32,000 bases of DNA from an uncultured archaeon (GTDB taxonomy: Archaea; Iainarchaeota; Iainarchaeia; Iainarchaeales; DATDZZ01), in assembly GCA_964373795.1 (NCBI GenBank), contig CAYJVY010000003.1:59383-91382 (forward strand), written 5' to 3'. The notes beneath the pieces were generated by a model, which ran no database searches, had not been told where the DNA came from, and saw only the letters and a list, made by a program, of their open reading frames with translations. The position numbers were made by a program, and so were the translations under genes. The first letter of the stretch is position 1; each line of letters starts with the position of its first letter. Shown here in pieces: positions 3,433 to 29,088 of this stretch.

Positions 3433-3969
3433 ATGAAATTGCTTGTGTTTTCATTTCTTTTAATTTTTTTAGGCGGCTGTATTTTGCCTTTAACCTTTGA
3501 TTCTGGATTGGAAAGAGTTTCATCTATTGGAGAAAAATTTGAAGTAAAAGAAGGATTTGTCGTTCCGCCAAAAAAAGAAAACCTTGAACCATATGCAAGT
3601 GAATTAAAGGCTTTCAAAAAAGAATTGGAAGGAAATTCTTCTGAAGAAGCAAAAGCATTAAAGTTATTAGTTAATGGAAGACTGGCTTTAGTTGAATCTC
3701 AAAAAGAGTTTTTAAATGCTTTAGAAAACCAGCAAATTGCAATTTCAAAAGATGAATTTGATTGTTCAAAAGAATATGGAAAAGCATTCAAAGGATTTCA
3801 AACAGCAATTGCTAGTGCAGAAGAAGCAGTTGATGAATTAAATCAACTTGAATTAAAAACAGATTTTGCAGTAAAAATAACTGGAAAAGATGGGTATAAT
3901 TTGAGTTCAACTGCTTTGACTTTTTTAGAAACTTTAAAGCCTTATTCTGAAATAACTCCTTCTTGCTAG
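3433..3969 (+). CDS. Secreted lipoprotein-like hypothetical protein
   Basis: N-terminal signal peptide ends in the lipobox-like FLGGC. The remainder is helical and charged. No family recognised. Confidence 0.55.
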   Translation: MKLLVFSFLLIFLGGCILPLTFDSGLERVSSIGEKFEVKEGFVVPPKKENLEPYASELKAFKKELEGNSSEEAKALKLLVNGRLALVESQKEFLNALENQQIAISKDEFDCSKEYGKAFKGFQTAIASAEEAVDELNQLELKTDFAVKITGKDGYNLSSTALTFLETLKPYSEITPSC

Positions 3970-4630: not shown

Positions 4631-6574
4631 TTGAGGGATTACTTGAAAAAAATTTTATTTATTTTAATTCTTTTCTCACTATTTTTTTTACTTGGCTGTA
4701 TTCTTCCTAAAATAAAAAACGATGTAAAAGTTGATCCTCTCCCGAAAATTGATAACCATATTTCAAAGGTCTTATTAAATTCTTGTGGAAATAACATTTG
4801 TGATTCTGAGGAAAATAAAATTACTTGTCCTCAAGATTGTTTAATTAAAAAAAATAAAACTGAGAAGTGTAATTATAATAATTTGTGTGAAGGATTTGAA
4901 GGGCAAAGCTGCAGTGACTGCCAATGTTTAAACGGAGTTGTATGCAATGGATTGTGTTTCAATAATTTGAATTCAAGTGAATGCTTTGAAGGGGTTTTAT
5001 TTAACTCTGAATTTATTGGAGAAAATTCTTGTAAAACTTTAAGTGAATGCCCTAAAGAAAAGCCTTGCAAGGTTCCAGGGGAATGTGAGTCTTTTAATTT
5101 GCCTTTAAAGGTTTCATTTAATTTGCCTCAATTTTTGGAACTAGGGCAAGAAACTAAAGGGAAAATTATTTTTTATAATACTTTTGATTCTGTTTTAAAG
5201 CAAAAAATTAGAATATCCTTATATGATTTGCAGGTAAAAGATTTGCATGGAAAAGATTTTAATTTATTGAATGAAGTTACTGTTAACGCAAACGATTCAC
5301 TTGAATTTGATGTAATTGTTGTTCCATTAAAATTAAGTGATTCTGTTGGATTTGATTCATTGGATAAAGTAATCATGAATATTGAATTAGAGTCTTCTCA
5401 AGGAGAGGAATTTAATTCTCCTTTTCGTTTTAATGCATTTGTTTTTGATAAAAAAACTGCCTTGAAGTGTGGAGAAAATTATTGGAATTTTTCAGGAGTG
5501 TGCGTTGGAGAAATATTTTTTCCTTCAGCTAATTGTTCTTTTGGAAAGAACTGCATTGATAAAGAAAGTTTTTGGGATTTTAACAAGAGAGATGTTTTAG
5601 CTAACGGAAAAAAATCTGTTGCAATTCTTTCATTAAACCTGCCTTTGGAGTCAAAAAATAATCTTTCAACTTCAAGTATTAATTTATTGTTTGAAGATGT
5701 TAATAATTGGTTTGAAAGAGAAGCAATTAGATATACAAAGCAAAAAATGCTTTCATTTGAACCAAAATTTTTTGGAAACTTTGAATTGTCTTTAAATGAA
5801 AACTCTTTTGAATGGGGTGCAAGAAACTTTTTACAAGAAAAACTTAAAATTGATTTAAACAAATTTGATTTTGTTTTAATTGTTTTGCCTTCTCTTCCTA
5901 AAACCGATTTAGGAGAAGCTGCAGGTTATTATTATGGAAATGGAGACATACTATTGTTAGATTCAGCTGCTTTGAATGAAGAAACCGTTGTTCATGAATT
6001 AACTCATGGATTTGGTTGCAAGGATTTGTATGAAAAAAAGTTTTTATGTAATTATCATTGGAATAGATCTCTTTTATGTGCAGGAGCTTGGATTGCAGGA
6101 GACCTTCTTTCAACTAGTGAATCAAGTACTCAGTATTTGAGTGACAGAGTTTTAGGAAACTGTGCTGCTGAAATTGGTTGGAGTGATGTAGACAACGATG
6201 AAATAATTGATTTAGTGGATGAAAATATTTCAACTGTTATTCCAAATGAATTTACTGGAATTGCTTTCAAGGATTTAAATTACTTTGTAACGCAAGAAGA
6301 ATTTTATTTCTTGTATGAAAATTATAACTATGGGATGGGGCCTGGAACACTAGCTATTTTAGGAAAACTAGTTGATTCTACAACTAATTCTCTTATTGCT
6401 GGAAAGGTTTCAGTAAAGGATTTGAATTCAATGCAAGGAGACTTTAAATGCTTGGATGAAGATATTGATGGAATTTTTTTCTGTAGAATTAGCCCTGAAT
6501 TTGTTTCAAATACAATTACTTTGCAAGCAGAATTTGAAGGGTTTAAAACAGAACAAGTAATTCAATTAAAGTAA
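4631..6574 (+). CDS. Secreted, cysteine-rich lipoprotein-like putative zinc metalloprotease
   Basis: Signal peptide with the lipobox-like LLGC. The start is TTG at 4631 or the in-frame TTG at 4643, which gives MKKILF. The N-terminal region is Cys-rich (CGNNICDSEENKITCPQDC). HExxH motif in VVHELTHGFGC. Confidence 0.6.
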   Translation: MRDYLKKILFILILFSLFFLLGCILPKIKNDVKVDPLPKIDNHISKVLLNSCGNNICDSEENKITCPQDCLIKKNKTEKCNYNNLCEGFEGQSCSDCQCLNGVVCNGLCFNNLNSSECFEGVLFNSEFIGENSCKTLSECPKEKPCKVPGECESFNLPLKVSFNLPQFLELGQETKGKIIFYNTFDSVLKQKIRISLYDLQVKDLHGKDFNLLNEVTVNANDSLEFDVIVVPLKLSDSVGFDSLDKVIMNIELESSQGEEFNSPFRFNAFVFDKKTALKCGENYWNFSGVCVGEIFFPSANCSFGKNCIDKESFWDFNKRDVLANGKKSVAILSLNLPLESKNNLSTSSINLLFEDVNNWFEREAIRYTKQKMLSFEPKFFGNFELSLNENSFEWGARNFLQEKLKIDLNKFDFVLIVLPSLPKTDLGEAAGYYYGNGDILLLDSAALNEETVVHELTHGFGCKDLYEKKFLCNYHWNRSLLCAGAWIAGDLLSTSESSTQYLSDRVLGNCAAEIGWSDVDNDEIIDLVDENISTVIPNEFTGIAFKDLNYFVTQEEFYFLYENYNYGMGPGTLAILGKLVDSTTNSLIAGKVSVKDLNSMQGDFKCLDEDIDGIFFCRISPEFVSNTITLQAEFEGFKTEQVIQLK

Positions 6575-8745: not shown

Positions 8746-9450
8746 CTAAAAAATTTCTATTTTTGGAAAAGATTTATTTAAAATAAATGTTTTAGTTTCT
8801 CCATTGCAAAATTTTTGCACTAATTCACTTAATTCTTTAATTATTTTTTCTACTTCTTGTTTTGAAACTGGTGGCAAGCCTTCTGTTACAAGTGAAACGT
8901 TTTTTGTTTCTTCAGTCATTCGAGTTTTATGGCTTTCTCTCCAATTCCATCTCCTGCATAAAACTTCTTTTTCATCGCAATAAATTATTTCTCCTTTTTG
9001 AGGATTTTTAATTTCTTGAGAATTTAATTCAATGAATTTTTCATTGCCTTCAGCAAATTTTAGTGAAATATTTCCTTCAACTTTGTCTAAATTGTCTCCG
9101 CCAATTGGAATCAAGTGCTTTAGTGAAACAAAATTGTATAAGTCAACTAACTTGTTTATGTGTTTTAATTGAATTCCTTCTAAAGTCATTCTATACAAGT
9201 TTTCAACAGAGCATTTGTATTTTTTTGGTTTTGCTCCAAAAGAAGTAAAAGCTTTTCTCCAGCAATCAATTTTAGGGTTTTGTGAAAGAGTTTCAGAATT
9301 AAATTTACTTTGAATTTCTATTTGTTTTTCTTTAAGCAATGCCATTATTTCTTTATTTTCGCCTTGATTGTTTAAATTTGTTGCAATAACTATTCCAATA
9401 TTTAGTTCTGGAAATTTTCCAAAAATTGAGTTTTCAATAATAAAATGCAT
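8746..9450 (-). CDS. Solo B3/4 domain protein (PheRS-beta B3/B4-like, COG3382-type)
   Basis: INKLVDLYNFVSLKHLIPIGGDNLDKVEGNISLKFAEGNE matches the B3/4 domain core pattern (lVDiyN..Sl....PiGg.D.dk..g.l.l). Confidence 0.7.
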   Translation of the reverse strand: MHFIIENSIFGKFPELNIGIVIATNLNNQGENKEIMALLKEKQIEIQSKFNSETLSQNPKIDCWRKAFTSFGAKPKKYKCSVENLYRMTLEGIQLKHINKLVDLYNFVSLKHLIPIGGDNLDKVEGNISLKFAEGNEKFIELNSQEIKNPQKGEIIYCDEKEVLCRRWNWRESHKTRMTEETKNVSLVTEGLPPVSKQEVEKIIKELSELVQKFCNGETKTFILNKSFPKIEIF

Positions 9451-9470
9451 TTAAATCTTTTTAATTGAAT

Positions 9471-9550
9471 TGCTTCGCACGTCGAGCGCGAACCGTTCGG
9501 CTGGTTAGGCCAATGCCAACACTGGTATTCAGATCAGTCGGATGTGGTGG
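9471..9550. other. GC-rich structured intergenic island (candidate small RNA or 3'-UTR structure)
   Basis: Roughly 58% G+C by hand count, in AT-rich surroundings. Local hairpins are TTCGC...GCGAA (about 9474-9492) and, on the minus strand, CCAGTG-TTGG-CATTGG. No cloverleaf could be drawn. Confidence 0.3.
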
Positions 9551-10519
9551 CTAGCTTTGAATTCCTTTTAATTGGCTTTCTTCTTTAAAGGAGGTGCGAA
9601 ATCCTTTTCCAAATGCATATCCTAGTTCTGAAAATAATTGATTGAAACTAAATTCTTTTTCACTGTAATTAACTATTTCAGGAGATTCAATGCCTGCAAG
9701 TTCTGTTGCCCTATTAATTGCTGTTTGCTTGTTTCCAAGAAAATCAATTAATCCGTGTTCTTTTGCTTGTTTTCCTGATAAAATTCTTCCATCAGTTATT
9801 TCATCAAAGGAAGGCTTTAATCTTTCTCCGCGGAATTTTTTAATGTCTCCTTTAAAGTTTTCATAGGCTTGTCTTAAAATATCTTGAAAGATTTTTTCTT
9901 CTTCTGCAGTTAAGTCTTTGAAAGGTGAGCCAATTGCTTTGAATTTTCCTTCCTTAAGAATTGTTACTTTTACTCCGTGTTTTTCAAGTAATTCTTTTAA
10001 ATTAATTAATTCAGTTATTACTCCAATTGATCCAGTTAAAGAATCTTCATCTGCCACGATTTCATCTGATGCAGCTGCAATATAGTAACCTCCTGATGCT
10101 CCGATGTCTGAAATAAATGCTACTATTGGTTTGTTTACGTCTCTTATTTCTTGAACTATTTGCTTTGTTGCAATAACTCCTCCTCCAGGGGAATTAATTT
10201 CTAAAACAATTGCGCCAACACTTGAATCCGCATTTGCATCTTTAATGTTTTGAATAACTCTTTCAACGCTTAAAGTTGACTCTAAATTGCTTTCCTCTAA
10301 TGAAATCACTCCTTTAACTGGAATTACAGCTATTTTGTATGGCTTGAATAAATTAAAAGAATTTTTTTGAGAGCTTGCTCCTAAGCCGGCTAAAACAATT
10401 ACGCTAACAACAATCAACACAATTAATACTATAGCTCCTATTACTGCAATTGGAACAATTAATGGAATATTTAATTTGTTTTCTTTTTTGTGAAACATTT
10501 TAATCAGTTGAATAATCAT
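9551..10519 (-). CDS. sppA: Signal peptide peptidase SppA (S49 family, 36K type)
   Basis: N-terminal TM helix. The S49 motifs EINSPGGGV and ASGGYYIAAASDEIVA...SLTGSIGV are present. Confidence 0.85.
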   Translation of the reverse strand: MIIQLIKMFHKKENKLNIPLIVPIAVIGAIVLIVLIVVSVIVLAGLGASSQKNSFNLFKPYKIAVIPVKGVISLEESNLESTLSVERVIQNIKDANADSSVGAIVLEINSPGGGVIATKQIVQEIRDVNKPIVAFISDIGASGGYYIAAASDEIVADEDSLTGSIGVITELINLKELLEKHGVKVTILKEGKFKAIGSPFKDLTAEEEKIFQDILRQAYENFKGDIKKFRGERLKPSFDEITDGRILSGKQAKEHGLIDFLGNKQTAINRATELAGIESPEIVNYSEKEFSFNQLFSELGYAFGKGFRTSFKEESQLKGIQS

Positions 10520-17623: not shown

Positions 17624-18826
17624 TTATTTGTTTACTTCTTTTTCAATTACTTCTCTAATTTTTTTTGCATCTAAATCCAATTTAATGAAACGTGTTTGTC
17701 CTTTATATCCTTGTCCAGAATTAGTTGTAACAATTAATCCATACATTTCTAATTCACTAACATATTGCCTATACCATCTAGAACTTATGGGATTTTCTTG
17801 ATATCTTTTTGCAAGAGAAGAATATTCATTGAACACTTCTCCTGAAAAAACTAATTCTTTTTCTTCTTCCCCAGTTATTTTAGTTAAACCGCTTGAACGC
17901 ATGCTTACATTGGCAATTGCAAGTAAAACTAATTGTTCTTGAGTTGGAAGAGTTGAAATCATGTTAAAAATAATTTCTTCTTCAACTTTTTGCTTTGCTT
18001 CTAGTACTTGGACTTCCGAAACTTTTTGCAAAGAATTATTATCTGCTTGTTCTCCTGCTCTAAGTAAAAGCATTACTCCTGTCCTAGCATCTCCAGATTC
18101 TTTTGCTGCAATTGCTGCAGCTAAATTTATTGCTGGTTGTTCAACAGTGTTTTCCTTAAATGCTAGTTTAACTCTTTGTTTTAGTATTTCAGTTAATTCT
18201 TCTGCATTATATGGAGGAAAAACCATTTCATGTTCGCATAAACTGCTTTTAGTTCTAGGATCTAATCTGTCTTTAAACATTAAATTATTTGATACTCCTA
18301 CAATTGAAATGCTTCCCTTTCCTATTTCATCGTTTGCTCTTGTAAGAGAATAAATTAATTCATCTAAATCCTTTACCTTGTCTATTTCATCTAAAACAAT
18401 TATTACATCTCTTTCTGTTTCCTTCACAAATTCAATTAATTTTTCTAAAACAAATCCAGAACTATATCCTAAAAAGTTTTTATTAGGATAAAACTCGTTA
18501 ACACATTTCAATAAAGCCCTGTATTTAGATGAATGGTTTCTGCAATTAACATAACAAGTTTTTATGTTAACCTTATTTTTTTCAGCAAATTCATTTAATT
18601 GCGATAAAACAAATTTAGTTACACTTGTTTTACCAGTTCCTGTTTTACCATATAGAAAAAGATTATTAGGTTTTTTTCTATTTAACACAGTTCCAAGAAC
18701 TGAAGTAATTTCTTTTATTTGATTTTCTCTAAAAGGAAGTTCATTTGGAATGTAATGAGGCATTATTAAATTTCTGTCCTTAAAGACTGTTGGTTTTTCT
18801 AATTCGGCCTGAAAAATATTTTCCAT
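17624..18826 (-). CDS. cdc6: Orc1/Cdc6 replication initiator
   Basis: AAA+ domain with Walker A GKTGTGKT and Walker B VLDEIDK. GDAR sensor region (ESGDARTG). A C-terminal winged-helix segment is present. Confidence 0.9.
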   Translation of the reverse strand: MENIFQAELEKPTVFKDRNLIMPHYIPNELPFRENQIKEITSVLGTVLNRKKPNNLFLYGKTGTGKTSVTKFVLSQLNEFAEKNKVNIKTCYVNCRNHSSKYRALLKCVNEFYPNKNFLGYSSGFVLEKLIEFVKETERDVIIVLDEIDKVKDLDELIYSLTRANDEIGKGSISIVGVSNNLMFKDRLDPRTKSSLCEHEMVFPPYNAEELTEILKQRVKLAFKENTVEQPAINLAAAIAAKESGDARTGVMLLLRAGEQADNNSLQKVSEVQVLEAKQKVEEEIIFNMISTLPTQEQLVLLAIANVSMRSSGLTKITGEEEKELVFSGEVFNEYSSLAKRYQENPISSRWYRQYVSELEMYGLIVTTNSGQGYKGQTRFIKLDLDAKKIREVIEKEVNK

Positions 18827-18895: not shown

Positions 18896-21800
18896 TTAGA
18901 TATTTCTTGGAATTTTTTTTTGCTCTACTTTTTCTTCTTTTTTTCTTGAATAAAATTTTATTCCTATAATTAAAACAATTAAAATTACTAAAGGGTATAA
19001 TGCAAGAGGGATTTGCAAATTTTTCGCATTCTTATTCAAAGAAAGAAGTGAGGTGCCTGCATTTGCATACTTTAATGCATCTAAATATTTTTTTTCTTCC
19101 AAGTTTTTTTGAGCTTCTTCAATTATTTTTTTTGCATCTTCTTTTGGATTTTCTTTTAATAAAAACTCTGCTTGCTTAACTTTACCTATTGCACTATTCT
19201 TAATCGAATCTTTTTTACTTTCTAATTGGCTTTTAATTTCTTGAAGTCTTTTAATTGAATTTTCAATTTCTTTAGCATCTTTTTCATTTGAAGCTATTTC
19301 TAAAAATTTGTTTTCATTAAAAAGTGATTCAATTTCATTTAACTTGTTAGTATTTATTTTGTTAATGATTTCTTTTGATTCTCTTTTAAAGTAGCTTAAT
19401 TCTTGCTTGCTTAAAGGAATATATTTTGCCAATTCATTTAATTCATCTTTACTTAAACCATCGAAAAGATCTTCAAATTCCTGAATTAAGTTTTCAATTT
19501 GCCTATTACTTATTAATTCATTTAACTGTCTTGCGTTTAAAATAATTTTTTCAGATTTAGATTTTAATTCATTTTTTAAATGATTTTCTAAATTTATTTT
19601 TTCTTTTGAAAGCGAATTCAATAATTCATTTGCTTCAAAATATTTTTCTTCATTAAACTTGGTTAAAATTTCTTCTTTCATTGAATTAATTTTTTTTTCT
19701 TCATTGCTTGGAGGGTTTTCAAGTTTTGAATTGTTTATTTTTTCAAAAATAGTGTTTAATTCATTTGTTGTGAAAAGATATTTTGCCATTAATTCTTTTT
19801 TTATTTTTGGGAAAGACTTACTTTGCATTAAACTTTGGATTTCTAAAAGTATTTTCTTTTCTTCAAGAATTTTTTGGTTTAATTCATTTTCTAAAGCTGA
19901 GTTAAATTTTTCTTTTAATTCGTTTAAGTATTGCTTTAATTCAATTGTTTTATCCTTCATATTAGTTTTTTCTAATTCATTTAATTCTTTTTCTAAATAA
20001 TTAATTTGTTCTAATGCTTCTTTTTTTAATGAATTAATTTCAATTAAGCTTTTTTCATAATCTGTATTTTTTTTTGAAAGGTCATTTATCTTTGATTTTA
20101 GTTTTTCAAGTTTTGAGATTTTTTCTTTATTATCTTGAATTTGCATTAACTTATTTAGTTCTTTTAATTCATTTAATGCCTGTTCTTTTACCTCTTTAAA
20201 GTCCGATAAAATTAGTAAATTAACTTCCATTTCAATTTCTTTCTCAACTTTTTCAATTAATTTATCTAAATTTTCAATTTTTTTATATAGTGTTAGAGTT
20301 ATTTCTTCCTCTTTATTCAAGTTATTTAAATTGAATTCAATTTTGTTTGTTGTTTGATTTAATTTAATACTTTTTCCGCTTTCGTTAAATAGCTCTACTG
20401 TGATTAGAGTTTCATTTAAATTGAATTGATTTAATGAAATAACTGTGTTTTCAATATTTAATGGTAAATTGTTTTTGATCTTTATTTCTTGAACTATTTC
20501 AAATTCTTTTTCATTTAATTTAATAATTTCTTCTTGGGGTAATGACACTTTTATTGGGTTTAATATATAATAGTAAATTGAAATTATTTGATTATCTTTT
20601 GGTTTTTCAATTAAAAAACTTATTTCATTTTCTTTTAACCCGAACGGAATTTTTTTGTTTTCAGAATAAATACTTACTTCATTAAGTAAATCGATTGGTT
20701 GAATTAACTCTGTTGAAACAACTGCTTTTTCTATTTCTCTTAATAGATTTATTTTAATTTCTTTTAAGATTAGCGCTTTTTTTTCACTTGCATTTAAAAC
20801 AATTGTTTTGATTTCTGAAACATTTATCTCATTAAATTCTTTCACTGTTAACTCTGTTTGATTTAAGGGCAATTCGTTTAATGTAACCTCAATTTTATTG
20901 TTTGAAATGCTGGTTTTAATTATATTTTGAGTTTTACTTACAATTTCTGTTTCATTTACTTTATTTAATGGAATTGAAATATTTATTTCTTCATTTATCT
21001 GTTCATTAAAAGGGTTTTTTACAACATATTTTGTTAAGACTTCAATTTTTTTATCAGTTTTAAATAACTCGTTTGATAAACTTTGTATTTCTATATTTTC
21101 TTCTAAAAATATTTTTAGTTCTTGAATTAATTCAATTCTTATTTCATTAAATAGTTTAAGTAACTTATTTTTTATTTCAAGTTTGTTTTTAATAATTTCT
21201 TCAACTTCATTGCTTGAAAATAATTCATTGAAATAATTTATTTGAGTTTTAAATTTTAATGCTTTTGAAGTTGAAAGTGTTCCAAGTAATTCTAAATAAT
21301 GGTTTGTTTTTTTAAGCAAGTCTTTTAATTCACTTAAATCAAAACTTGAATATGCATAAAACGTAATGTCCTTTTTCAGTTCAATACAATAATTTTTTCC
21401 ATTAAAATATTCTTTATTTTTTTGAATTAATTTTAAGTTATTCAATCTTTCAAAAAATATGTTTTTTATTTCAGGATTTTTTAATAATTCGTTAACTTCA
21501 TTTAAGCATTTTTCAAATCCTTCTTTTTCGTTTACTTCAAATTCTGTGAATTGATTTATAGCTTTTTTGAAGAGTTTAAAATCTTCTACTATTGGTTTGC
21601 ATTGAATTAATTTTTCTTTTTCAGTTTTCGTTTCATTGAATTTAATTATTTTGCTTGTTAATTTGTTTTTTAATTCAATTACTTCTATTCGGTCAATTTT
21701 TTCTTTATTTATTTCATTACGGATAAAGTTAGCTCTTGAATTGCATAAATCAATTAATTCATCTGTTAATTCATTTGAGTAAAAAAGAGTTTTATCATTT

Positions 21801-23038
21801 AATAACTTTAATTCACTGTTAATGTTTTTTAATTCAATTACTTTTTTTCCATTTGAAATATTGTTGAAATAATTCTTGTTTAACAATTTGTTTAACTGTT
21901 TTTTTAATTCGTCCAATTTTTCAAAATTGTTTTGCTTAAATTGATTTATTTCATTCAACTCAAATTTTTGTGTTTGAATTTCTTTTCCTTCCTGCAATAA
22001 CGAGATTAGTGAAGAAATGAATTCTTCATTAAAGCTTTGATAACTATTTGAATCTAATGCATTTAATTGTGTTTGAATTGATTCAATTAAGAACTTGTTT
22101 TCATTAATTAACTCATTTGTTTTTTCTTTTAAATTTTTCTTATTTTTAGCAATTGTTTTAATTAAATCAATAAATTTTTCAGTAGCGGAATTACTTGGAG
22201 AGGCTAATGAATCAAATAAACTGAAAAATTCTGATGGATTTGCTTTTCCTAGTAAAATGTTTCCTTGAACTGTTTTATCTAAAAAATTAATTTTATGTAC
22301 TAATGCAAAAGCTGAGTTTTTAATTATTGCAGCAAAAGGATTATTCTTTAATAGAATTGAAAAAATTGTGTTATCTATTTCCGCGAACACGTCAATTAAA
22401 GTGAATTCTTTTACAGTTCTAGTTGAATCAATTGCTTGAATTAATTTATTTAATTCATTTGATTTGAAAAAATATAATCCAACAAATGTTTTAGAATTTT
22501 TATTTCCATTGAATAAATCATTTAAATTATTAATTAAGTCTAAATAAGAGTCAAAAATTGGTTCTTCTTTTATTAAATTAATTTCCTGTAATTCAAGTTC
22601 TTGAATCTCTAAAACAATTATTTCTAATGCAATTAAATTTAATTTATTTAATTCTTCAATTGCTTTATTTAAATATGAAATTGATTCGTTTGCATGAAAG
22701 GAAAGATTTGAAACAAATCTTTGGTTGCATTCTTTGTTTATTTCGTTTAAACTTGTTCTAATCTTGTTAAAATAAAACCAAGAAAATGCCAAAGAATTTT
22801 TATACAAACCAATTTTTTGATTTAATGCTAAGGAAAACTCGCTTAAATCATTTTCAGGCAATAATTCATTAACCTTATTAAAACAGGCTTCTTTTGATTC
22901 ACAAAAAGGAATGGATGTTGAAGGAAAAGAAGTTAAACTCAAACAAACTCTTCTCTGAGAAATACTTAACTCATTTACTGGATCAATGCAGCCAATCAAG
23001 AAAAGAAAAGACAGAAATAAAAAAATCTTTAGCTTCAT
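18896..23038 (-). CDS. Giant (1380 aa) coiled-coil envelope protein with an N-terminal lipobox-type signal peptide and a C-terminal TM anchor
   Basis: The N-terminus is MKLKIFLFLSFLFLIGC. Long N/K/E/L/I-rich heptad-like stretches are interrupted by a beta-rich segment at about residues 680-900. The C-terminal hydrophobic helix PLALYPLVILIVLIIGI is followed by a basic tail. No family recognised. Confidence 0.7.
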   Translation of the reverse strand: MKLKIFLFLSFLFLIGCIDPVNELSISQRRVCLSLTSFPSTSIPFCESKEACFNKVNELLPENDLSEFSLALNQKIGLYKNSLAFSWFYFNKIRTSLNEINKECNQRFVSNLSFHANESISYLNKAIEELNKLNLIALEIIVLEIQELELQEINLIKEEPIFDSYLDLINNLNDLFNGNKNSKTFVGLYFFKSNELNKLIQAIDSTRTVKEFTLIDVFAEIDNTIFSILLKNNPFAAIIKNSAFALVHKINFLDKTVQGNILLGKANPSEFFSLFDSLASPSNSATEKFIDLIKTIAKNKKNLKEKTNELINENKFLIESIQTQLNALDSNSYQSFNEEFISSLISLLQEGKEIQTQKFELNEINQFKQNNFEKLDELKKQLNKLLNKNYFNNISNGKKVIELKNINSELKLLNDKTLFYSNELTDELIDLCNSRANFIRNEINKEKIDRIEVIELKNKLTSKIIKFNETKTEKEKLIQCKPIVEDFKLFKKAINQFTEFEVNEKEGFEKCLNEVNELLKNPEIKNIFFERLNNLKLIQKNKEYFNGKNYCIELKKDITFYAYSSFDLSELKDLLKKTNHYLELLGTLSTSKALKFKTQINYFNELFSSNEVEEIIKNKLEIKNKLLKLFNEIRIELIQELKIFLEENIEIQSLSNELFKTDKKIEVLTKYVVKNPFNEQINEEINISIPLNKVNETEIVSKTQNIIKTSISNNKIEVTLNELPLNQTELTVKEFNEINVSEIKTIVLNASEKKALILKEIKINLLREIEKAVVSTELIQPIDLLNEVSIYSENKKIPFGLKENEISFLIEKPKDNQIISIYYYILNPIKVSLPQEEIIKLNEKEFEIVQEIKIKNNLPLNIENTVISLNQFNLNETLITVELFNESGKSIKLNQTTNKIEFNLNNLNKEEEITLTLYKKIENLDKLIEKVEKEIEMEVNLLILSDFKEVKEQALNELKELNKLMQIQDNKEKISKLEKLKSKINDLSKKNTDYEKSLIEINSLKKEALEQINYLEKELNELEKTNMKDKTIELKQYLNELKEKFNSALENELNQKILEEKKILLEIQSLMQSKSFPKIKKELMAKYLFTTNELNTIFEKINNSKLENPPSNEEKKINSMKEEILTKFNEEKYFEANELLNSLSKEKINLENHLKNELKSKSEKIILNARQLNELISNRQIENLIQEFEDLFDGLSKDELNELAKYIPLSKQELSYFKRESKEIINKINTNKLNEIESLFNENKFLEIASNEKDAKEIENSIKRLQEIKSQLESKKDSIKNSAIGKVKQAEFLLKENPKEDAKKIIEEAQKNLEEKKYLDALKYANAGTSLLSLNKNAKNLQIPLALYPLVILIVLIIGIKFYSRKKEEKVEQKKIPRNI

Positions 23039-23197: not shown

Positions 23198-23728
23198 ATG
23201 AAGAGATTATTTTTTTTATTTTCCTTGATTTTAATTTTGCCTGTGTTTTTTGCACAGCCTATAGAAGATCTTGTAGAAATTAATTCAATGAAGCTAAGCA
23301 TTGCAGGAAAAGAATCAAATGTTTTTGATTTACAGAATGCTTCAAATATTAAAGTAGAACTACAAATTGAAAGTAAAAGTATTGCTTCAAATGGCAATAT
23401 TTCGTTAAACTTGATTTCTTTGGATTCAAAAAATTCTAATGCAATTGGAAGCATTCCCTACAGCTTAGCTGTTAAAGGAAGCACTGGAGACAAAAAAGAT
23501 ATTAACATGCAAATTAATTTAAGTTCTTTTTCTCAAGGAAGTTATGAATTAAGAGCAGAAATAACTCCTTCTCCACTAGTTGCAGAAGATAAATCAAACA
23601 ATGTTTTAAGTAAATCAATTACTTTAACTAAGTCGAGCAAACCAATTTCAATAAGCGAATTTGACATGCTTTTGCTTCCCTTTATTGCATTAATTTCTCT
23701 TGCATTAATTTTTCAAAATTCACGTTAA
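23198..23728 (+). CDS. Small secreted Ig-like (CARDB-like) protein with a C-terminal sorting-signal-like TM tail
   Basis: Signal peptide MKRLFFLFSLILILPVFFA. The beta-rich body ends in a CARDB-like AEDKSNNVLSKSITL. The tail is ISEFD, the hydrophobic helix LLLPFIALISLALIF, then QNSR. Confidence 0.5.
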   Translation: MKRLFFLFSLILILPVFFAQPIEDLVEINSMKLSIAGKESNVFDLQNASNIKVELQIESKSIASNGNISLNLISLDSKNSNAIGSIPYSLAVKGSTGDKKDINMQINLSSFSQGSYELRAEITPSPLVAEDKSNNVLSKSITLTKSSKPISISEFDMLLLPFIALISLALIFQNSR

Positions 23729-23759: not shown

Positions 23760-24359
23760 ATGCTGTCCTTAGAACAAGGAGAAAAACTAGTTAAAATTGC
23801 TAGAAAATCAATAGAATTTTTTTCCGTTACTCGAAGAATTGTTACAGATTTAAACGATGAAAAAGAATTCCAAAACCTTTTCCCGGTTTTCATTGCAATA
23901 AAAAACCAGCCATCGAATTCTATTCGAGGAGGAATTGCTTTACTAAATCCATCAATTCCTTTATGGAATGCAGTTATTCAAACAGCAATTAATGCAGCAT
24001 TTAAGGATCCGCGATTTTCAGAAATAAAATCAAACGAATTAAATAAAGTCGTAATTGAAGTAAGCATTTTAACTACTCCTGAAGAACTGCATGGAGATAG
24101 AAAAGGTTTTCCAAATCAATTAATTGCAGGAATAGATGGCTTGATAATTGAAAAAGGTTCTAAAAAAGTTTTAACCTTGCCAAGTGAAGCACTTGAATTA
24201 AATTTGGATTCAAAAAAATTATTAGAATTGACTTGTAGAAAAGCAAATCTTCTTTCAACTGCTTGGTTTGAATCCAGGACAACTGTTTACAAATTTCAAA
24301 TGCAAACCTTTAAAGAAATTCAACCAAAAGGACAAGTAATTGAAGTTACCCAGAACTAA
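23760..24359 (+). CDS. AMMECR1 domain protein
   Basis: AINAAFKDPRFSEIKSNEL...VIEVSILTTPEEL matches the AMMECR1 core. The usual RGCIG motif reads RGGIA here. Confidence 0.8.
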   Translation: MLSLEQGEKLVKIARKSIEFFSVTRRIVTDLNDEKEFQNLFPVFIAIKNQPSNSIRGGIALLNPSIPLWNAVIQTAINAAFKDPRFSEIKSNELNKVVIEVSILTTPEELHGDRKGFPNQLIAGIDGLIIEKGSKKVLTLPSEALELNLDSKKLLELTCRKANLLSTAWFESRTTVYKFQMQTFKEIQPKGQVIEVTQN

Positions 24360-26316
24360 AAAACATGTTCTTAATAACTGTTGTTGAAAGGAAAAACCCT
24401 GACATCATTAAAAGAGCAATTATTTCAAGCACAGTAAAAATGCTGTAAGAATCCTTAATAAAAATTTCAGTAAACAAATTATTCACTATTGTTAAAGGAA
24501 GAATTGAAGTAAACAATTTAATTAACGGGGCAATAAAATCTAAAGGAAAAATTATTCCACTTAAAAAAATCATTGGAATAACTAATAACAAAGATCCAAG
24601 AATTGCTGTTGACTCATTTTTAGTAAAATTAGAAATAAATAACCCTAAAGAAACAAATGTAAGAGCCGCTAAACCAACTCCAATTAATCCAATAAAAATT
24701 TTCGTAATAGTAGGAGTAATCCCAAATCCAATAAAGTCATATCCAAATACTGGAAAAGGTAAATTAATTTTAGTAAAAGCATAAACCAAAATAATTAATG
24801 CAATTACAAAAGCAATCAATATTTGTCCTAACACTTTTCCAAACACTAATTTTAATTGAGTAGTAGAACTTAACCTCATTCTCAAAAAAGCTCCTTGCTT
24901 GTCTTCAGTAATAGCGGAAAAAGAACTTAAAAGCAAGCAAGTTAAAAGCAATACAATTGACAATACAATTGGAGTTAAAATTCCTAAAACAGTTACATCT
25001 TTATACAATAACTGTTCTTTTACAATTATTGGTTGAGCAATAAATTTTGGATCCCTATCACTTAACTGTTTTAGAATGTTTGAAAAATCCTGAATTAATG
25101 TTTTCGAGTCCTGCAATCTTAAAGTTAAAGCATCCTTGGAAGTTCTACCATCGCTCACTAAAGCTCTAGTGCTATCAATTGTTTCAGTTAAAGCTCCTGC
25201 TTCCTTATTTAAATCACTTAAATCGTTTTTAAAAGTATCAATAGTGAATCCTAAAGTTGTTAACCTATTTTTTCCATCCTGAACCCGAATATTTGTGCTA
25301 GTTAAAACATTTTGTAACTCAATTAACTTGTCATCAGCTTGCCTTATTTTGGTTTTCGCATTTCTTAAATCAATTAAAGCTGACTGCACTTTTGCTAAAT
25401 TCTTATTATTTTCTCGCTGCAAATCCCTAATAGTGGCTAAAGTATTTGGCTCGTTTTTAAAAGTCTGCTCAGCATTATTTAAAGTATTCCTAATGTCAAG
25501 CAAAGTAATTTCAAGGTCTTCTAAATCAGTAATCGATGAATCAACTTTCCCTTCATAAACAAATAATTCATTTCTAGCATTAGAGGTTTCAGTTTGAAGT
25601 TTTTGAACATCGGTTTCAGTTTTAGTTAAATCCGCTTTAAAATCATTTACAGTTGAATCAACATTTGAAACATTTTGACTTTGAAAATCCAAAATTCTAT
25701 TAATTTTATCAGCATCAATTCTATTAACATTGCTTTCCAATTGATTTAATTTGTCTCCACTTTTATTTAATTCATCTAAATAACCATCAATCTTTCCAAC
25801 TTCTCCACTTAAATTTTGATTAACCTGATCAAGTTTTCCAAGCATTAAAGAAATAATTTCCTTAGTAGTGTTAACTTCAATTATTTTAATTACATTCTGA
25901 ATCTGGCTTTTAATTATTTTTGAAGTAGCAAAATTAGAGTTATCCAATAAAACATCAATCTTTATTTGCTCGGCCTTAGTTGCTTTATCGTTAATAACTA
26001 ATCCAACAAATACAAACTGTTTCTTCAAATCATTTTCAACACACTCTCTAGTAGCACATAAAGGCTTTAACACTTCAACTCTAGGATTTTTCTCCAACAA
26101 AGAAACAAATTCATTCACTTGTTCTTGACTTGCGCCTTCAATTTGTTCAGGAACTAAAACCGAAACAGAAACTTTATCCACTCCTTGACTGCTTCCAAAA
26201 GCCAATGCAAGAATCAAAGTAATCAAAATAGGATAAGCAACAATCAACCAAATAGTCATTTTCCTTGTACGAATTAAATCAAATTCCTTTAAAACAATGC
26301 TTAAAATTCGCCTCAT
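24346..26316 (-). CDS. ABC-2 type permease with a large coiled-coil ectodomain (YhgE/Pip-like architecture)
   Basis: N-terminal TM, then a roughly 400-aa extracytoplasmic region with a long N/D/L/T-rich coiled coil. A C-terminal 5-TM ABC-2 bundle follows. Its start overlaps the ATPase stop (ATGA). Confidence 0.75.
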   Translation of the reverse strand: MRRILSIVLKEFDLIRTRKMTIWLIVAYPILITLILALAFGSSQGVDKVSVSVLVPEQIEGASQEQVNEFVSLLEKNPRVEVLKPLCATRECVENDLKKQFVFVGLVINDKATKAEQIKIDVLLDNSNFATSKIIKSQIQNVIKIIEVNTTKEIISLMLGKLDQVNQNLSGEVGKIDGYLDELNKSGDKLNQLESNVNRIDADKINRILDFQSQNVSNVDSTVNDFKADLTKTETDVQKLQTETSNARNELFVYEGKVDSSITDLEDLEITLLDIRNTLNNAEQTFKNEPNTLATIRDLQRENNKNLAKVQSALIDLRNAKTKIRQADDKLIELQNVLTSTNIRVQDGKNRLTTLGFTIDTFKNDLSDLNKEAGALTETIDSTRALVSDGRTSKDALTLRLQDSKTLIQDFSNILKQLSDRDPKFIAQPIIVKEQLLYKDVTVLGILTPIVLSIVLLLTCLLLSSFSAITEDKQGAFLRMRLSSTTQLKLVFGKVLGQILIAFVIALIILVYAFTKINLPFPVFGYDFIGFGITPTITKIFIGLIGVGLAALTFVSLGLFISNFTKNESTAILGSLLLVIPMIFLSGIIFPLDFIAPLIKLFTSILPLTIVNNLFTEIFIKDSYSIFTVLEIIALLMMSGFFLSTTVIKNMFFSSG

Positions 26317-27287
26317 GTTTTTTCTCCAGCAGTTTTTTCAAAATCCCTAATCTTCTTTCCAGTCAAATTAATGAATACATCCTCTAATTCTGGTTCACGA
26401 ATATGAGAAGACTTAATTTCATACTTGGATTTTCTAATAAAATCAGTTATCTGAGTAACCTTAGACAAAGAAACCTCTTTCTGAAAAGAAATAATTAATT
26501 GATTCCCTAAAATTTTTCCATCATCAAATCCGACAACTACCTTCAAAGAATCCAAAAGCAATTCATCAAAAGGTTTATCCAAATTCAATATAACAATTTT
26601 CTTTCCGCCATATTCTTGAATTAATTTCTCAGGCGAGCCTTCAACCAAAATCTTTCCCTTGTTCATTATAGCAATTCTATCACACAATTCTTGAGCTTCA
26701 TCCATGTAATGAGTAGTTAAAATCATTGACTTTCCATGCTTTTTCAATTCCTTTATTTTATCCCAAAACATTGCTCTAACACTTGGATCTAGTCCAACAG
26801 TTGGTTCATCCAAAAAAATTATTTTCGGATCATGAATCAAAGCCAAACCAATATTAACAAGCCTCTTATACCCTCCAGATAAATGCTCAATTTTTCTTTC
26901 CTCAAACTGCTTCAAATTCAGCCATTCAAGCAAAAACTCTACTCGTTCAATTAATTTATTATTAGGAATATCATACAACCTGCCAAAAAACAAAAAATTT
27001 TGCTTAACAGTAAACCCCTGATAACAAGCAATTTCTTGCGGAACAACTCCAATAAATTTATTAAAAAACTTGAAAAAAAATCCAACCTTTTTACCCAAAA
27101 CATAAATATTCCCAGAAGAAGGCGAACTCAAACCACAAGCAATTTTAGCCAAAGTAGACTTGCCTGCTCCGTTAGGGCCAAGCAAACCATAAATCTCATT
27201 CTCATTTAAATAAAAATTAGAACTCTCTAAAGCAACAAACGAGCCAAACTTTTTTGAAACATTTTCAATTCTTAAAACTTCAGTCAT
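26313..27287 (-). CDS. ABC transporter ATP-binding protein (ABC-2/DrrA-like)
   Basis: Walker A is GPNGAGKST, the signature is LSGGYKR, Walker B is IIFLDEPTVGLD and the H-loop is TTHYMDE. Confidence 0.9.
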   Translation of the reverse strand: MTEVLRIENVSKKFGSFVALESSNFYLNENEIYGLLGPNGAGKSTLAKIACGLSSPSSGNIYVLGKKVGFFFKFFNKFIGVVPQEIACYQGFTVKQNFLFFGRLYDIPNNKLIERVEFLLEWLNLKQFEERKIEHLSGGYKRLVNIGLALIHDPKIIFLDEPTVGLDPSVRAMFWDKIKELKKHGKSMILTTHYMDEAQELCDRIAIMNKGKILVEGSPEKLIQEYGGKKIVILNLDKPFDELLLDSLKVVVGFDDGKILGNQLIISFQKEVSLSKVTQITDFIRKSKYEIKSSHIREPELEDVFINLTGKKIRDFEKTAGEKT

Positions 27288-27292
27288 TCTCT

Positions 27293-27466
27293 CACCCGTC
27301 GTTCAGCCGTGCAAGGTTCAGCCCTTGAAGCGCCGTTCAGCCGGCGAGGCTGAGTGCCCACGTGGGCATCGCGCTTGCCGCGCGAGACTACAGCTGAAGG
27401 GTCACGTGACCCCTCGCACTCGACGGGCGTGACCGCGAGCAAGGCTGAACACAATGCTTTGCATTG
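27293..27466 (-). ncRNA. Candidate structured RNA or 5' leader (GC-rich multi-hairpin element) directly upstream of the ABC operon
   Basis: About 67% G+C (hand count 107/160 over 27291-27450). At least six helices are present, including two hairpins with covarying stems and the identical TTCAGC loop. The element ends at a GGGTGAG SD-like box and the ATG at 27287. No known RNA family consensus was recognised. Confidence 0.45.
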
Positions 27467-27560
27467 AACAACATTCCAGCTAATTAAATTATTCACGCTA
27501 AAAGTGTGAAACAATTATGTACTACTTTTACTAAAGCTTATTGTTAACCATGTTTGGAAA

Positions 27561-27809
27561 TTATTTTGAACTACAAGAATCAATTACTTCTTGAGGGCAT
27601 TTTTTTAAATAACAATTTAATTCTTGATGACAAAGATTTAGAGAAATTTCTCTGGCTTTAAGTTTTTCAGGATCCTCTGCTTTAAGCAAAGGAGAAATAA
27701 ATTGAGTTCCAATAATTGTTCCAACAATTAATCCAATTAAAAGAATTGCAATCAAAATCAAATGACTTGACTGAATTGGAAGATCGTTTTCCGCAGTTAA
27801 TTTACTCAA
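27561..27809 (-). CDS. Small single-pass membrane protein with a 4-Cys C-terminal domain
   Basis: 82-codon ORF with a TTG start and the TM helix LILIAILLIGLIVGTIIG. The C-terminus is CHQELNCYLKKCPQEVIDSC. It lies on the same strand as the ABC operon, just upstream of it. Confidence 0.4.
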   Translation of the reverse strand: MSKLTAENDLPIQSSHLILIAILLIGLIVGTIIGTQFISPLLKAEDPEKLKAREISLNLCHQELNCYLKKCPQEVIDSCSSK

Positions 27810-27859: not shown

Positions 27860-28903
27860 TCAATTTTTTGCAATTGACAGGCTATCAAAATCAATTTTCA
27901 AATCCATGTCTTTCAAATCAGGGCGGACAAGCAGGCAAACCCTTGCAGTCTCAAATTCATCCCTGAAAAAATACCCGCTTTCACTAGCAATTTTTTTCGC
28001 AAATTCTCGAACATCGCCCATGGAAGGCATTTTATCTTCTTCTAATTTCAATCTACTTGGTCCAACCCAAGAATAACCTTTAACTTCAACAAACATTGGA
28101 TTTCCTCTTTTAATTATTGGTCCCCATTCTTTTTCATAAGACATATTTTTTCCTTTAACAGCAGTAACTCGAATAACAGTTCTAGTATTCATTTTAGCCA
28201 TTACATCCAATGACTTCATCATTTTCTCCCAAGAATCACTTTCTTGAGGTCTATTTAATTCAATATGCACTTGCTTGTTAGGAGAATCAAAACTCATATA
28301 CAACTGAGTAGGCAAAGGAATTTTCTCCAATACCTCTGGTCTAGAACCATTAGTAACTAAAAAAGTAGTAATCCCTTTATCATGATATGCTTGAATTAAT
28401 TCAGGTAACTGCTTATATAAAGTGGGCTCTCCACTCAAAGAAATTGCAACATGCTTAGGAGTATGACTTGCAAGCCATTTCTCTTTATCCACATACTGGC
28501 TTCCGCCCAAACCAGAAAGCTGTTGATTCTGCCTCTCAATTGATTCCTCAACCAATTCACTTACATCGTCTTTATACTCGATTTCGCGATTAGGAATAAC
28601 TGTCCTCCAACAATAATCACAACCATAATTACACACAGCAGTAATAGGAGTCATTTGAATACATTGATGACTTTGAATGCCGTAAAACTTCTGCTTATAA
28701 CAAGCAGTTCCGCCAGAAATAGAACTCCTAGTATAATGACAAGTCTTCACAGCTCCTAAAGCTCCAACTCTAGCATATTGCTGTCTTCTCAAAACCTTCT
28801 CCAAACCCTTAGGCAAGGTCTGAGGATCAGGCAAAACCTTTTTAGAATCCGAATTACTCTTATCTGAAATCTGAATTAATTCACTCAATTTCTCACCATT
28901 CAA
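27860..28903 (-). CDS. taw1: tRNA 4-demethylwyosine synthase Taw1/TYW1 (radical SAM)
   Basis: The radical-SAM cluster motif is CNYGCDYCW. KFYGIQSHQCIQMTP, SLSGEPTLY and the second-cluster N-terminal Cys residues match the family. The only in-frame start found is TTG at 28903, so the true start is uncertain. Confidence 0.88.
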   Translation of the reverse strand: MNGEKLSELIQISDKSNSDSKKVLPDPQTLPKGLEKVLRRQQYARVGALGAVKTCHYTRSSISGGTACYKQKFYGIQSHQCIQMTPITAVCNYGCDYCWRTVIPNREIEYKDDVSELVEESIERQNQQLSGLGGSQYVDKEKWLASHTPKHVAISLSGEPTLYKQLPELIQAYHDKGITTFLVTNGSRPEVLEKIPLPTQLYMSFDSPNKQVHIELNRPQESDSWEKMMKSLDVMAKMNTRTVIRVTAVKGKNMSYEKEWGPIIKRGNPMFVEVKGYSWVGPSRLKLEEDKMPSMGDVREFAKKIASESGYFFRDEFETARVCLLVRPDLKDMDLKIDFDSLSIAKN

Positions 28904-28904
28904 T

Positions 28905-28956
28905 CGCCGTCTCGCGCGGCGTGCGCGAGCAACTATTTGGTCGGCTTCAAAAAGCC
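28905..28956 (-). promoter_or_regulatory. GC-rich leader with mutually exclusive hairpins abutting the taw1 start codon
   Basis: CGCCG-TCTCGCG-CGGCG (28905-28921) overlaps CTCGCGC-GGCGT-GCGCGAG (28911-28929). A third hairpin is GGCTT-CAAA-AAGCC (28943-28956). Confidence 0.35.
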
Positions 28957-29088
28957 TGTTACTCTACTTATACAAATATTTCACTTAAATAAAAATATAA
29001 AACTATTCAATTACACACAAGCTAAAAAATTTATGTAGAAAAAATATTTTCCAGAAAAATGGAAAACATTGCACGAAAAAACATAATA

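Follow-up and report, generated by a model that had tools for sequence, protein, structure and literature searches.

Introduction

Two classes of short GC-rich palindromic repeats come closest to the element described here, a block of GC-rich hairpins directly upstream of an ABC-2 transporter operon in a 32-kb stretch of DNA (contig CAYJVY010000003.1; hereafter the window) from an uncultured archaeon of the Iainarchaeales. The first class is that of the bacterial repetitive extragenic palindromic sequences and bacterial interspersed mosaic elements (REP/BIME), including the GTAG- and CGTC-tagged repeats. These are extragenic, GC-rich stem-loops of 16-20 nt with stems of 5-7 bp and short loops, they occur as single units, as oppositely oriented pairs or clustered into larger folds, and their sub-types are set apart by complementary stem changes. 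Many REPs are transcribed and act as RNA hairpins. Sub-types with alternative complementary stem residues, oppositely oriented dimers and clusters folding into larger structures are documented for REP families (Di Nocera et al., 2013, PMC3733652). The second class, the mitochondrial GC clusters of yeast and others, consists of GC-rich palindromic blocks in very AT-rich genomes with a sporadic, lineage-specific distribution. In AT-rich mitochondrial genomes, smaller palindromic units have been merged and shuffled into new composites (Wu and Hao, 2015, PMC4478555). The archaeal element resembles both classes in these respects, including the RNA hairpins if it is transcribed as predicted below.

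We favour, with moderate confidence, reading the block as a lineage-specific mosaic of short GC-rich palindromic repeat units that separates the operon's TATA box from its start codon. With the same reserve, we assign it to the known class of GC-rich palindromic repeat mosaics, of which it would be a new member from an archaeon. If this is true, a very AT-rich, streamlined DPANN genome harbours expanding repeats of a kind best known from Proteobacteria and mitochondria, and such repeats could remodel the 5' ends of genes, here giving a probably leaderless operon a long, structured leader that depends on a Shine-Dalgarno (SD) box. The finding opens no long-standing question, but it bears on genome evolution and gene expression in DPANN archaea and points to the repeats as a possible source of new regulatory RNA. 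It also cautions against taking every GC-rich, hairpin-dense leader of an AT-rich genome for a riboswitch. An earlier note on this DNA had proposed such a reading, with a riboswitch- or attenuator-like element as the candidate; its structural description stood up to the analysis, whereas the sensor was not supported.

Results and discussion

A GC-rich, hairpin-dense block in front of the operon

The ABC transporter ATPase gene and the ABC-2/YhgE-like permease gene are both on the minus strand and form one operon (Table 1). ATG 27287 was taken as the start of the ATPase because the resulting N-terminus, MTEVLRIENVSKKFG, is typical. Directly upstream, 107 of 160 nucleotides are G or C (66.9%, versus 28.7% for the whole window), as the earlier note had counted, and its picture of a multi-hairpin block abutting an SD-like GGGUGAG and the ATPase ATG was borne out. 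The element is the strongest GC peak of the 32 kb and reaches 70% when averaged over 80 nt. It contains eight entries (six distinct) for perfect hairpins with a stem of at least 5 bp, compared to 1.6 ± 1.5 in 1000 dinucleotide-preserving shuffles, none of which reached eight. The motif GTTCAGCC and its inverted form GGCTGAAC together occur four times in the window, all within the element, where 0.35 copies are expected and 0 of 100 shuffles reached four. The fold z-score was -2.9 for the mRNA (minus) strand, compared with -2.4 for the plus strand.

The sharply foreign composition (67% versus 29% GC) and a stop-free open reading frame (ORF) of 76 codons across the element would fit an assembly chimera, a contamination or a horizontally acquired fragment of a GC-rich coding gene. 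This explanation is effectively refuted. Logan contigs from two other read sets reproduce both junctions with 100% identity (the proximal one over window positions 27340-26050, the distal one over 29239-27404), and the element is therefore no assembly artefact. The organism occurs in the read sets ERR3478686 and ERR4904390 as well. The dense palindromes are not coding-like, the 76-codon ORF has neither a Pfam match nor a relative among 5.8 billion proteins, and a blastn search of the element against plasmids and phages returned no match. The feature is real and statistically solid. Contig breaks, by comparison, were discarded as a sign of repeats: two Logan contigs do end inside the element, but low coverage explains this: another contig of that sample breaks off in ordinary AT-rich DNA, and none of these contigs is longer than about 1-2 kb.

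Within the block, the neighbouring hairpins A1 and A2 share an identical TTCAGC loop, while their stems differ at four of five positions with every change compensated; the second and third copies of GTTCAGCC fall within these two loops. The distal part consists of two tandem modules of about 45 nt, M1 and M2, each composed of GCTGAR, a NNNCACGTGNNN palindrome and a TCGCGC-type hairpin. All helices listed in the earlier note are present where it had placed them, and its count of three GTTCAGCC against one GGCTGAAC, with alternative pairing registers, proved correct. The tandem-module organisation had been overlooked, as had both palindromes, a hairpin that excludes A2 and the related hairpins at two further intergenic sites. 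Since YTCAGC occurs in three forward and three reverse copies within 150 bp, many alternative pairings are possible. Judged by this anatomy, the element is internally repetitive and does not resemble a ligand-binding aptamer.

The same six YTCAGC copies in both orientations, together with the two perfect 12-bp palindromes that share a CACGTG core and the location between the TATA-like box and the ATG, would also suit a protein-binding array at the DNA level, that is, operator or iteron sites for a transcription factor or another DNA-binding protein controlling the operon. We give this very little credence. Duplex sites need no flanking complementary arms of differing sequence, as found here, and the array would lie downstream of the likely transcription start. 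Moreover, it is absent from orthologous operons and no regulator gene is adjacent, the upstream neighbours of the operon being a gene for an 82-aa membrane protein, followed by that of a Taw1-like enzyme.

Table 1. Positions of the GC-rich block, its parts, the genes behind it and the related hairpins elsewhere in the window.
Feature	Position	Strand	Basis	Remarks
GC-rich composite element, whole	27291..27450	not assigned		
ABC transporter ATPase gene (PF00005)	26313..27287	-	Pfam	
ABC-2/YhgE-like permease gene	24346..26316	-		
SD-like GGGUGAG	27291..27297	-	sequence	3 nt 5' of the ATPase ATG
Three direct GTTCAGCC copies	27301..27349	+	repeat family D2	copies at 27301, 27316 and 27335; 7-11 nt after each
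Enclosing helix	27301-27308 / 27443-27450			
Hairpin A1, CAAGG-TTCAGC-CCTTG	27312-27327		sequence	
Hairpin A2, CGCCG-TTCAGC-CGGCG	27331-27346		sequence	
Alternative hairpin TCAGCC-GGCGA-GGCTGA	27337..27353		hairpin search	excludes A2
Module M1	27348..27391	+		GGCTGAGT, then C1, then B1
Palindrome C1, GCCCACGTGGGC	27356-27367			perfect, 12 nt, CACGTG core
Hairpin B1, TCGCGC-TTGCC-GCGCGA	27369-27385			in M1; trailing GAC to 27388
Module M2	27392..27440	+		diverged tandem copy of M1: AGCTGAAG, then C2, then B2
Palindrome C2, GGTCACGTGACC	27400-27411			perfect, 12 nt, CACGTG core
Hairpin B2, CTCGC...GCGAG	27413-27439			in M2; expanded
Anti-SD segment CGCCCGUCG	27421..27429	-		9 bp with 27293-27301, one G-U in mRNA sense
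Inverted copy GGCTGAAC	27443..27450	+		can pair with any of the three GTTCAGCC
Small hairpin CAATGC-TTT-GCATTG	27452..27466			AT-richer, distal edge; includes ATG 27464 of the candidate upstream ORF
Candidate leaderless upstream ORF, 20 codons	27402-27464	-	read by eye, putative	ATG 27464 to TGA 27404-27402
TATA-like AATAATTTAATTA	27481..27493	-	sequence	geometry inferred from other window genes
B-type hairpin TCGCAC-GTCGA-GCGCGA	9475-9491			island 2
A-like hairpin AACCG-TTCGGC-TGGTT	9491-9506			island 2
B-type hairpin CTCGCGC-GGCGT-GCGCGAG	28911..28929			island 3, upstream of the Taw1-like radical SAM gene

Related hairpin units at two other intergenic islands

Only four segments of the 32 kb reach at least 66% GC over 24 nt, and three of them are intergenic: the element itself, 9471-9511 (island 2) and 28896-28937 (island 3). 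The hairpin pattern TCGCRC-N5-GYGCGA is found exactly three times in the window, once in each of the GC-rich intergenic islands (in islands 2 and 3 at 9475-9491 and 28912-28928), with 0.00 occurrences expected. Allowing up to three mismatches adds hairpin B2 and gives four matches versus 0.01 expected. The same pattern was found neither in 1.2 Mb of unrelated, mostly GC-rich loci nor in about 100 kb of related archaeal DNA. Hairpins with a 5-bp stem and a TTCRGC hexaloop likewise number three in the window, all within the islands, and the TTCGGC one of island 2 is the only one outside the element.

The island 3 unit matches B1 with its trailing bases (27369-27388) at 18 of 20 positions in inverted orientation (p<0.002), and B2 in direct orientation (p ~0.012). 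Island 2 matches a segment of B2 at 14 of 16 positions (p ~0.018); its overall similarity to the element is not significant beyond these short units. The three islands are about 40, 85 and 160 nt long and differ in the order and orientation of their modules, and the genes flanking them, for the ABC transporter, the Taw1-like enzyme and a B3/4-domain protein, are functionally unrelated. Units that are shared near unrelated genes while order and orientation vary are the signature of a dispersed palindromic repeat.

Measured against REP/BIME, the short GC-rich palindromic stem-loops are represented by A1, A2, B1, B2, C1 and C2, and the mosaic arrangement in both orientations by B1 and B2, which are inverted and direct, respectively, relative to the island 3 unit. 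As for occurrence at many sites, the B-type unit is present at three intergenic sites in 32 kb of a single window. Within one unit type, the copies are set apart by stem changes that are compensated. Duplication and hairpin-templated events acting on the DNA would let the units spread or expand, and the hairpins would form in RNA and possibly also in single-stranded DNA during the duplications that spread them.

Several observations weigh against a repeat mosaic. The evidence stems from only three loci in one 32-kb window, and the stretches they share are short, with 16-20 nt. Each of the three islands is located just 5' of a gene start on the same strand, a pattern that a functional leader motif would give too. 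No target-site duplication was found at 27300/27451 and no transposase among the genes of the window, and terminal inverted repeats are not clear beyond 8-12 nt. The A-type hairpins keep their loops and vary their stems, which is more typical of a recognised RNA or single-stranded DNA hairpin than of young DNA repeats. Finally, the strand evidence from G-U pairs is mixed, with two helices in favour of the mRNA sense and one of the opposite.

Differences from the described classes are also apparent. REPs and their RAYT transposases are mainly known from Proteobacteria, whereas the host here is an archaeon, and neither a RAYT nor any other transposase was seen among the ORFs of the window. REPs are mostly situated 3' of genes and the islands 5', and in the A-type units it is the loop that is conserved, not the stem. 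With regard to REP tags, GTAG-TC precedes B1 (minus strand), CGTC precedes the island 3 unit (plus strand) and island 2 has none, an inconsistent result from three copies only. The mitochondrial GC clusters differ in residing in organellar and not in archaeal chromosomal DNA. For them, mobility, copy-number variation and target-site duplication are documented, whereas no target-site duplication was found at the present element. The empty-site comparison used for GC clusters and miniature inverted-repeat transposable elements (MITEs) shows the element to be absent from the orthologous position, in a comparison confined to distant relatives (best ATPase 54% identical).

In an AT-rich archaeal genome, a GC-rich island is often the mark of a structural RNA gene. 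The three islands with their shared hairpins could accordingly belong to a paralogous family of independent small non-coding RNA genes, on either strand, each marked by its GC-rich island. TATA-like runs upstream on the plus strand as well, and an island 2 hairpin with a G-T pair valid only on the plus strand, would be in line with this. We nevertheless consider it very unlikely. The islands differ in length and module order as described above, the element abuts the SD box and the ATG without a spacer and is absent from relatives, and the searches for known RNA gave nothing at any threshold. An oligo-T or intrinsic-terminator-like site was found at the element on neither strand, and inspection revealed no C/D or H/ACA box arrangement.

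The searches in question covered the whole window with Rfam at gathering thresholds (0 matches) and with ARAGORN (0 tRNA or tmRNA genes), in agreement with the remark in the earlier note that no tRNA, SRP, RNase P, C/D or known riboswitch consensus was recognisable. In E-value mode, the best Rfam model for the element was chrB-a on the plus strand, with 24.5 bits versus a cutoff of 43.9 (E=0.05), and island 2 (9462-9567) had no match. A tRNA-like T-arm was rejected on inspection, the TTCAGC loops having 6 nt versus the 7 nt of a tRNA T-loop, and the defining geometry was equally absent for C/D boxes, a BHB intron, an integron attC site, a retron and an ORB/origin. The same holds for an H/ACA RNA, even though ACA follows the enclosing helix on the plus strand.

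Pattern searches in larger collections brought up chance matches and tandem repeats. A scan of a genome collection for three copies of GGCTGAAC with variable gaps returned at least 120 chance matches in GC-rich bacteria, and among the matches listed none was element-like beyond the pattern itself. With tighter gaps, metagenome contigs gave 90 matches, every one of them an unrelated tandem repeat that lacks the 7/11 spacing. The B-unit gave five chance matches in viral contigs, on phage contigs of 64-70% GC.

Both islands show further details. Island 2 (9462-9567, up to 68% GC) has the ATG of the B3/4-domain gene (8746-9450, minus strand) on one side and, on the other, the stop codon of an S49 peptidase gene (9551-10519, minus strand). 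It also holds a hairpin ACTGGT-ATTCAG-ATCAGT, and its fold z-scores are only -0.7 to -0.9. Island 3 (28896-28965) lies in the spacer that separates the Taw1-like gene from a divergently oriented PRC-barrel gene, with a second hairpin GGCTT-CAAA-AAGCC followed on the minus strand by GGTGAG and TTG 28888. This TTG, rather than TTG 28903, may be the true start of the Taw1-like gene.

The block is absent from orthologous operons

The nearest relatives of the ATPase are at most 54% identical, and the named ones belong to metagenome-assembled genomes of Diapherotrites/DPANN. Such poor sampling of the lineage limits comparative analysis. We compared seven orthologous ABC-2 operons of related DPANN (Diapherotrites-like) archaea, whose ATPases are 43-54% identical. 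The earlier note had suggested looking for conservation in such upstream regions, and there was none: a GC-rich leader precedes 0 of 7 operons. Their upstream regions are short and AT-rich, and in 7 of 7 a TATA-like box precedes the ATG by about 20-40 nt. Two of the seven relatives have genomes as AT-rich as the window (30-33% GC). GC islands occur in the loci of the relatives only inside coding sequence, and no element-like sequence was detected in about 100 kb of related archaeal DNA.

Most genes of the window follow the same style, in that a TATA-like box precedes the ATG by 20-35 nt and an SD box is lacking, which suggests that most of its mRNAs are leaderless. The ABC ATPase and Taw1-like genes are exceptional in having GGTGAG-type SD boxes behind GC-rich hairpins. 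In the ABC operon, the GC block separates the TATA-like box from the ATG and carries the SD-like GGGUGAG at its edge. This arrangement suggests that, in this lineage, the block came to lie between promoter and start codon by insertion or grew there by duplication. A GGTGAGARAWTGASTGAA likeness between the SD/start contexts of the ABC ATPase and Taw1-like genes was also considered and dropped, as it scored no higher than comparisons with other gene starts.

One of the orthologous loci, CAZNZM010000003.1, contains a single GGCTGAAC (position 3645 of the retrieved locus) in a 380-nt, very AT-rich spacer upstream of the ATPase. This copy is probably due to chance (about 0.3 expected).

A probable structured leader with two predicted competing folds

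The TATA-like stretch proposed in the earlier note is present as given there and is likely the promoter of the operon; by analogy with the other genes of the window, transcription would start near 27455-27465. The cluster would then be co-transcribed as a leader of about 170 nt, making the operon SD-dependent where most genes look leaderless. In the predicted folds, the GGGUG part of the SD box is paired with a probability of about 0.5-0.8. Pairing of 27421-27429 with 27293-27301 in the anti-SD helix is incompatible with the enclosing helix, which it crosses. Enforced folding gave -88.3 kcal/mol for the former and -88.0 kcal/mol for the latter, each populated to about 45-50%. The note's assertion of mutually exclusive helices, one of them over the SD box, is hence correct, and the two are predicted to be near-isoenergetic. 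Under this model the leader would flip between two folds, one of which pairs the SD (GGGUG) with CGCCC at 27425-27429. Such partial sequestration of the SD box would probably dampen or modulate translation or make it structure-dependent, and the stable 5' structure may protect or stabilise the 5' end of the mRNA.

Mutually exclusive helices that take in the ribosome-binding site, one of them lying over it, and a position directly upstream of a transporter operon are what the element has in common with riboswitch and attenuator platforms. It differs from them by its repetitive, modular build, by the lack of a conserved aptamer and of an Rfam family, and by the orthologous leaders without the element. 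To our knowledge, attenuation at intrinsic terminators is not an archaeal mechanism. A sensor of the riboswitch or attenuator type, as suggested in the earlier note, is not supported for an element that is repetitive and not aptamer-like and whose units are shared with two islands next to unrelated genes.

More broadly, the block could serve the ABC-2 operon as a dedicated cis-regulatory leader RNA in which a trans factor shifts the balance between the SD-free and the SD-sequestered state. Candidates for this factor would be a protein reading the repeated GCUGAA loops, comparable to CsrA-type multi-site leaders or to boxB/MS2-type hairpins, a small ligand, temperature or the translation of a 20-codon leaderless upstream ORF (uORF). 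Multi-hairpin protein-binding RNAs with repeated loop motifs are known from the CsrA/RsmE targets and from CsrB/RsmZ. The element is alike in that several hairpins present the same short loop motif, with one more copy beside the SD box, and differs in its motif, which is GCUGAA and not GGA, and in that no partner was identified; we know of no CsrA-like protein for this lineage.

A number of features would suit such a leader: the two hairpins with identical hexaloops on fully compensated, differing stems, thus conserving loop and not stem; the third copy of the loop motif 8 nt from the SD box; the crossing, mutually exclusive helices within 0.3 kcal/mol; the G-U pair of the anti-SD helix, valid only in the mRNA sense; the end of the element exactly at an SD box where most genes have none; the z-score of -2.9 on the mRNA strand; and the position of all three islands 5' of gene starts. 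On the other hand, the element is missing from 7 of 7 orthologous operons, no homologue emerged from the metagenome, viral, plasmid, phage or protein searches, and the build is repetitive instead of aptamer-like. Its units recur in the leaders or spacers of unrelated genes (Taw1-like, B3/4-domain) in other order and opposite orientation. Furthermore, repeated complementary motifs give alternative pairings automatically, and the bistability is therefore no independent evidence. Taken together, we rate a dedicated leader RNA as rather unlikely and prefer the repeat mosaic, for which any effects of the leader would, on the folding model, be a by-product or at most an exaptation, and not those of a dedicated ligand sensor.

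The two ideas can be joined. An undescribed GC-rich palindromic repeat family of DPANN archaea might have been exapted as a translational switch, the insertion having made a leaderless gene SD-dependent, with the toggle between the SD-free and the SD-sequestered state driven by a reader of the GCUGAA motif (three copies) or by translation of the uORF that unwinds the anti-SD strand. This combination is speculative and, in our view, improbable. The ATG of the candidate uORF is found 17 nt downstream of the TATA-like box, its predicted peptide is MQSIVFSLARGHARRVRGVT, and it spans the 5' strand of both competing helices.

Genes of the window

The window encodes core archaeal genes, among them those for the ribosomal proteins S15 and S3Ae, CDP-archaeol synthase, SecD/SecF, a NOG1-type GTPase and a Hel308-like helicase, in addition to Cdc6/Orc1, AMMECR1, a Taw1-like wyosine radical SAM enzyme and NFACT. 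The 82-aa ORF upstream of the operon (27561-27809, minus strand) has one predicted transmembrane helix, a Cys-rich tail (C-x5-C-x4-C-x8-C) and no Pfam match. It is called as a gene in two Logan assemblies, and the closest orthologous loci have a 67-68-aa ORF and a DUF192 gene at its position. Further ORFs without a Pfam match are located at 4631-6574, 3433-3969 and 23198-23728. Another such ORF, of 1380 aa (18896-23038, minus strand), adjoins the Cdc6/Orc1 gene (17624-18826). Its DNA is rich in AT-rich imperfect direct repeats (families D3-D9), which suggest a repetitive or coiled-coil protein.

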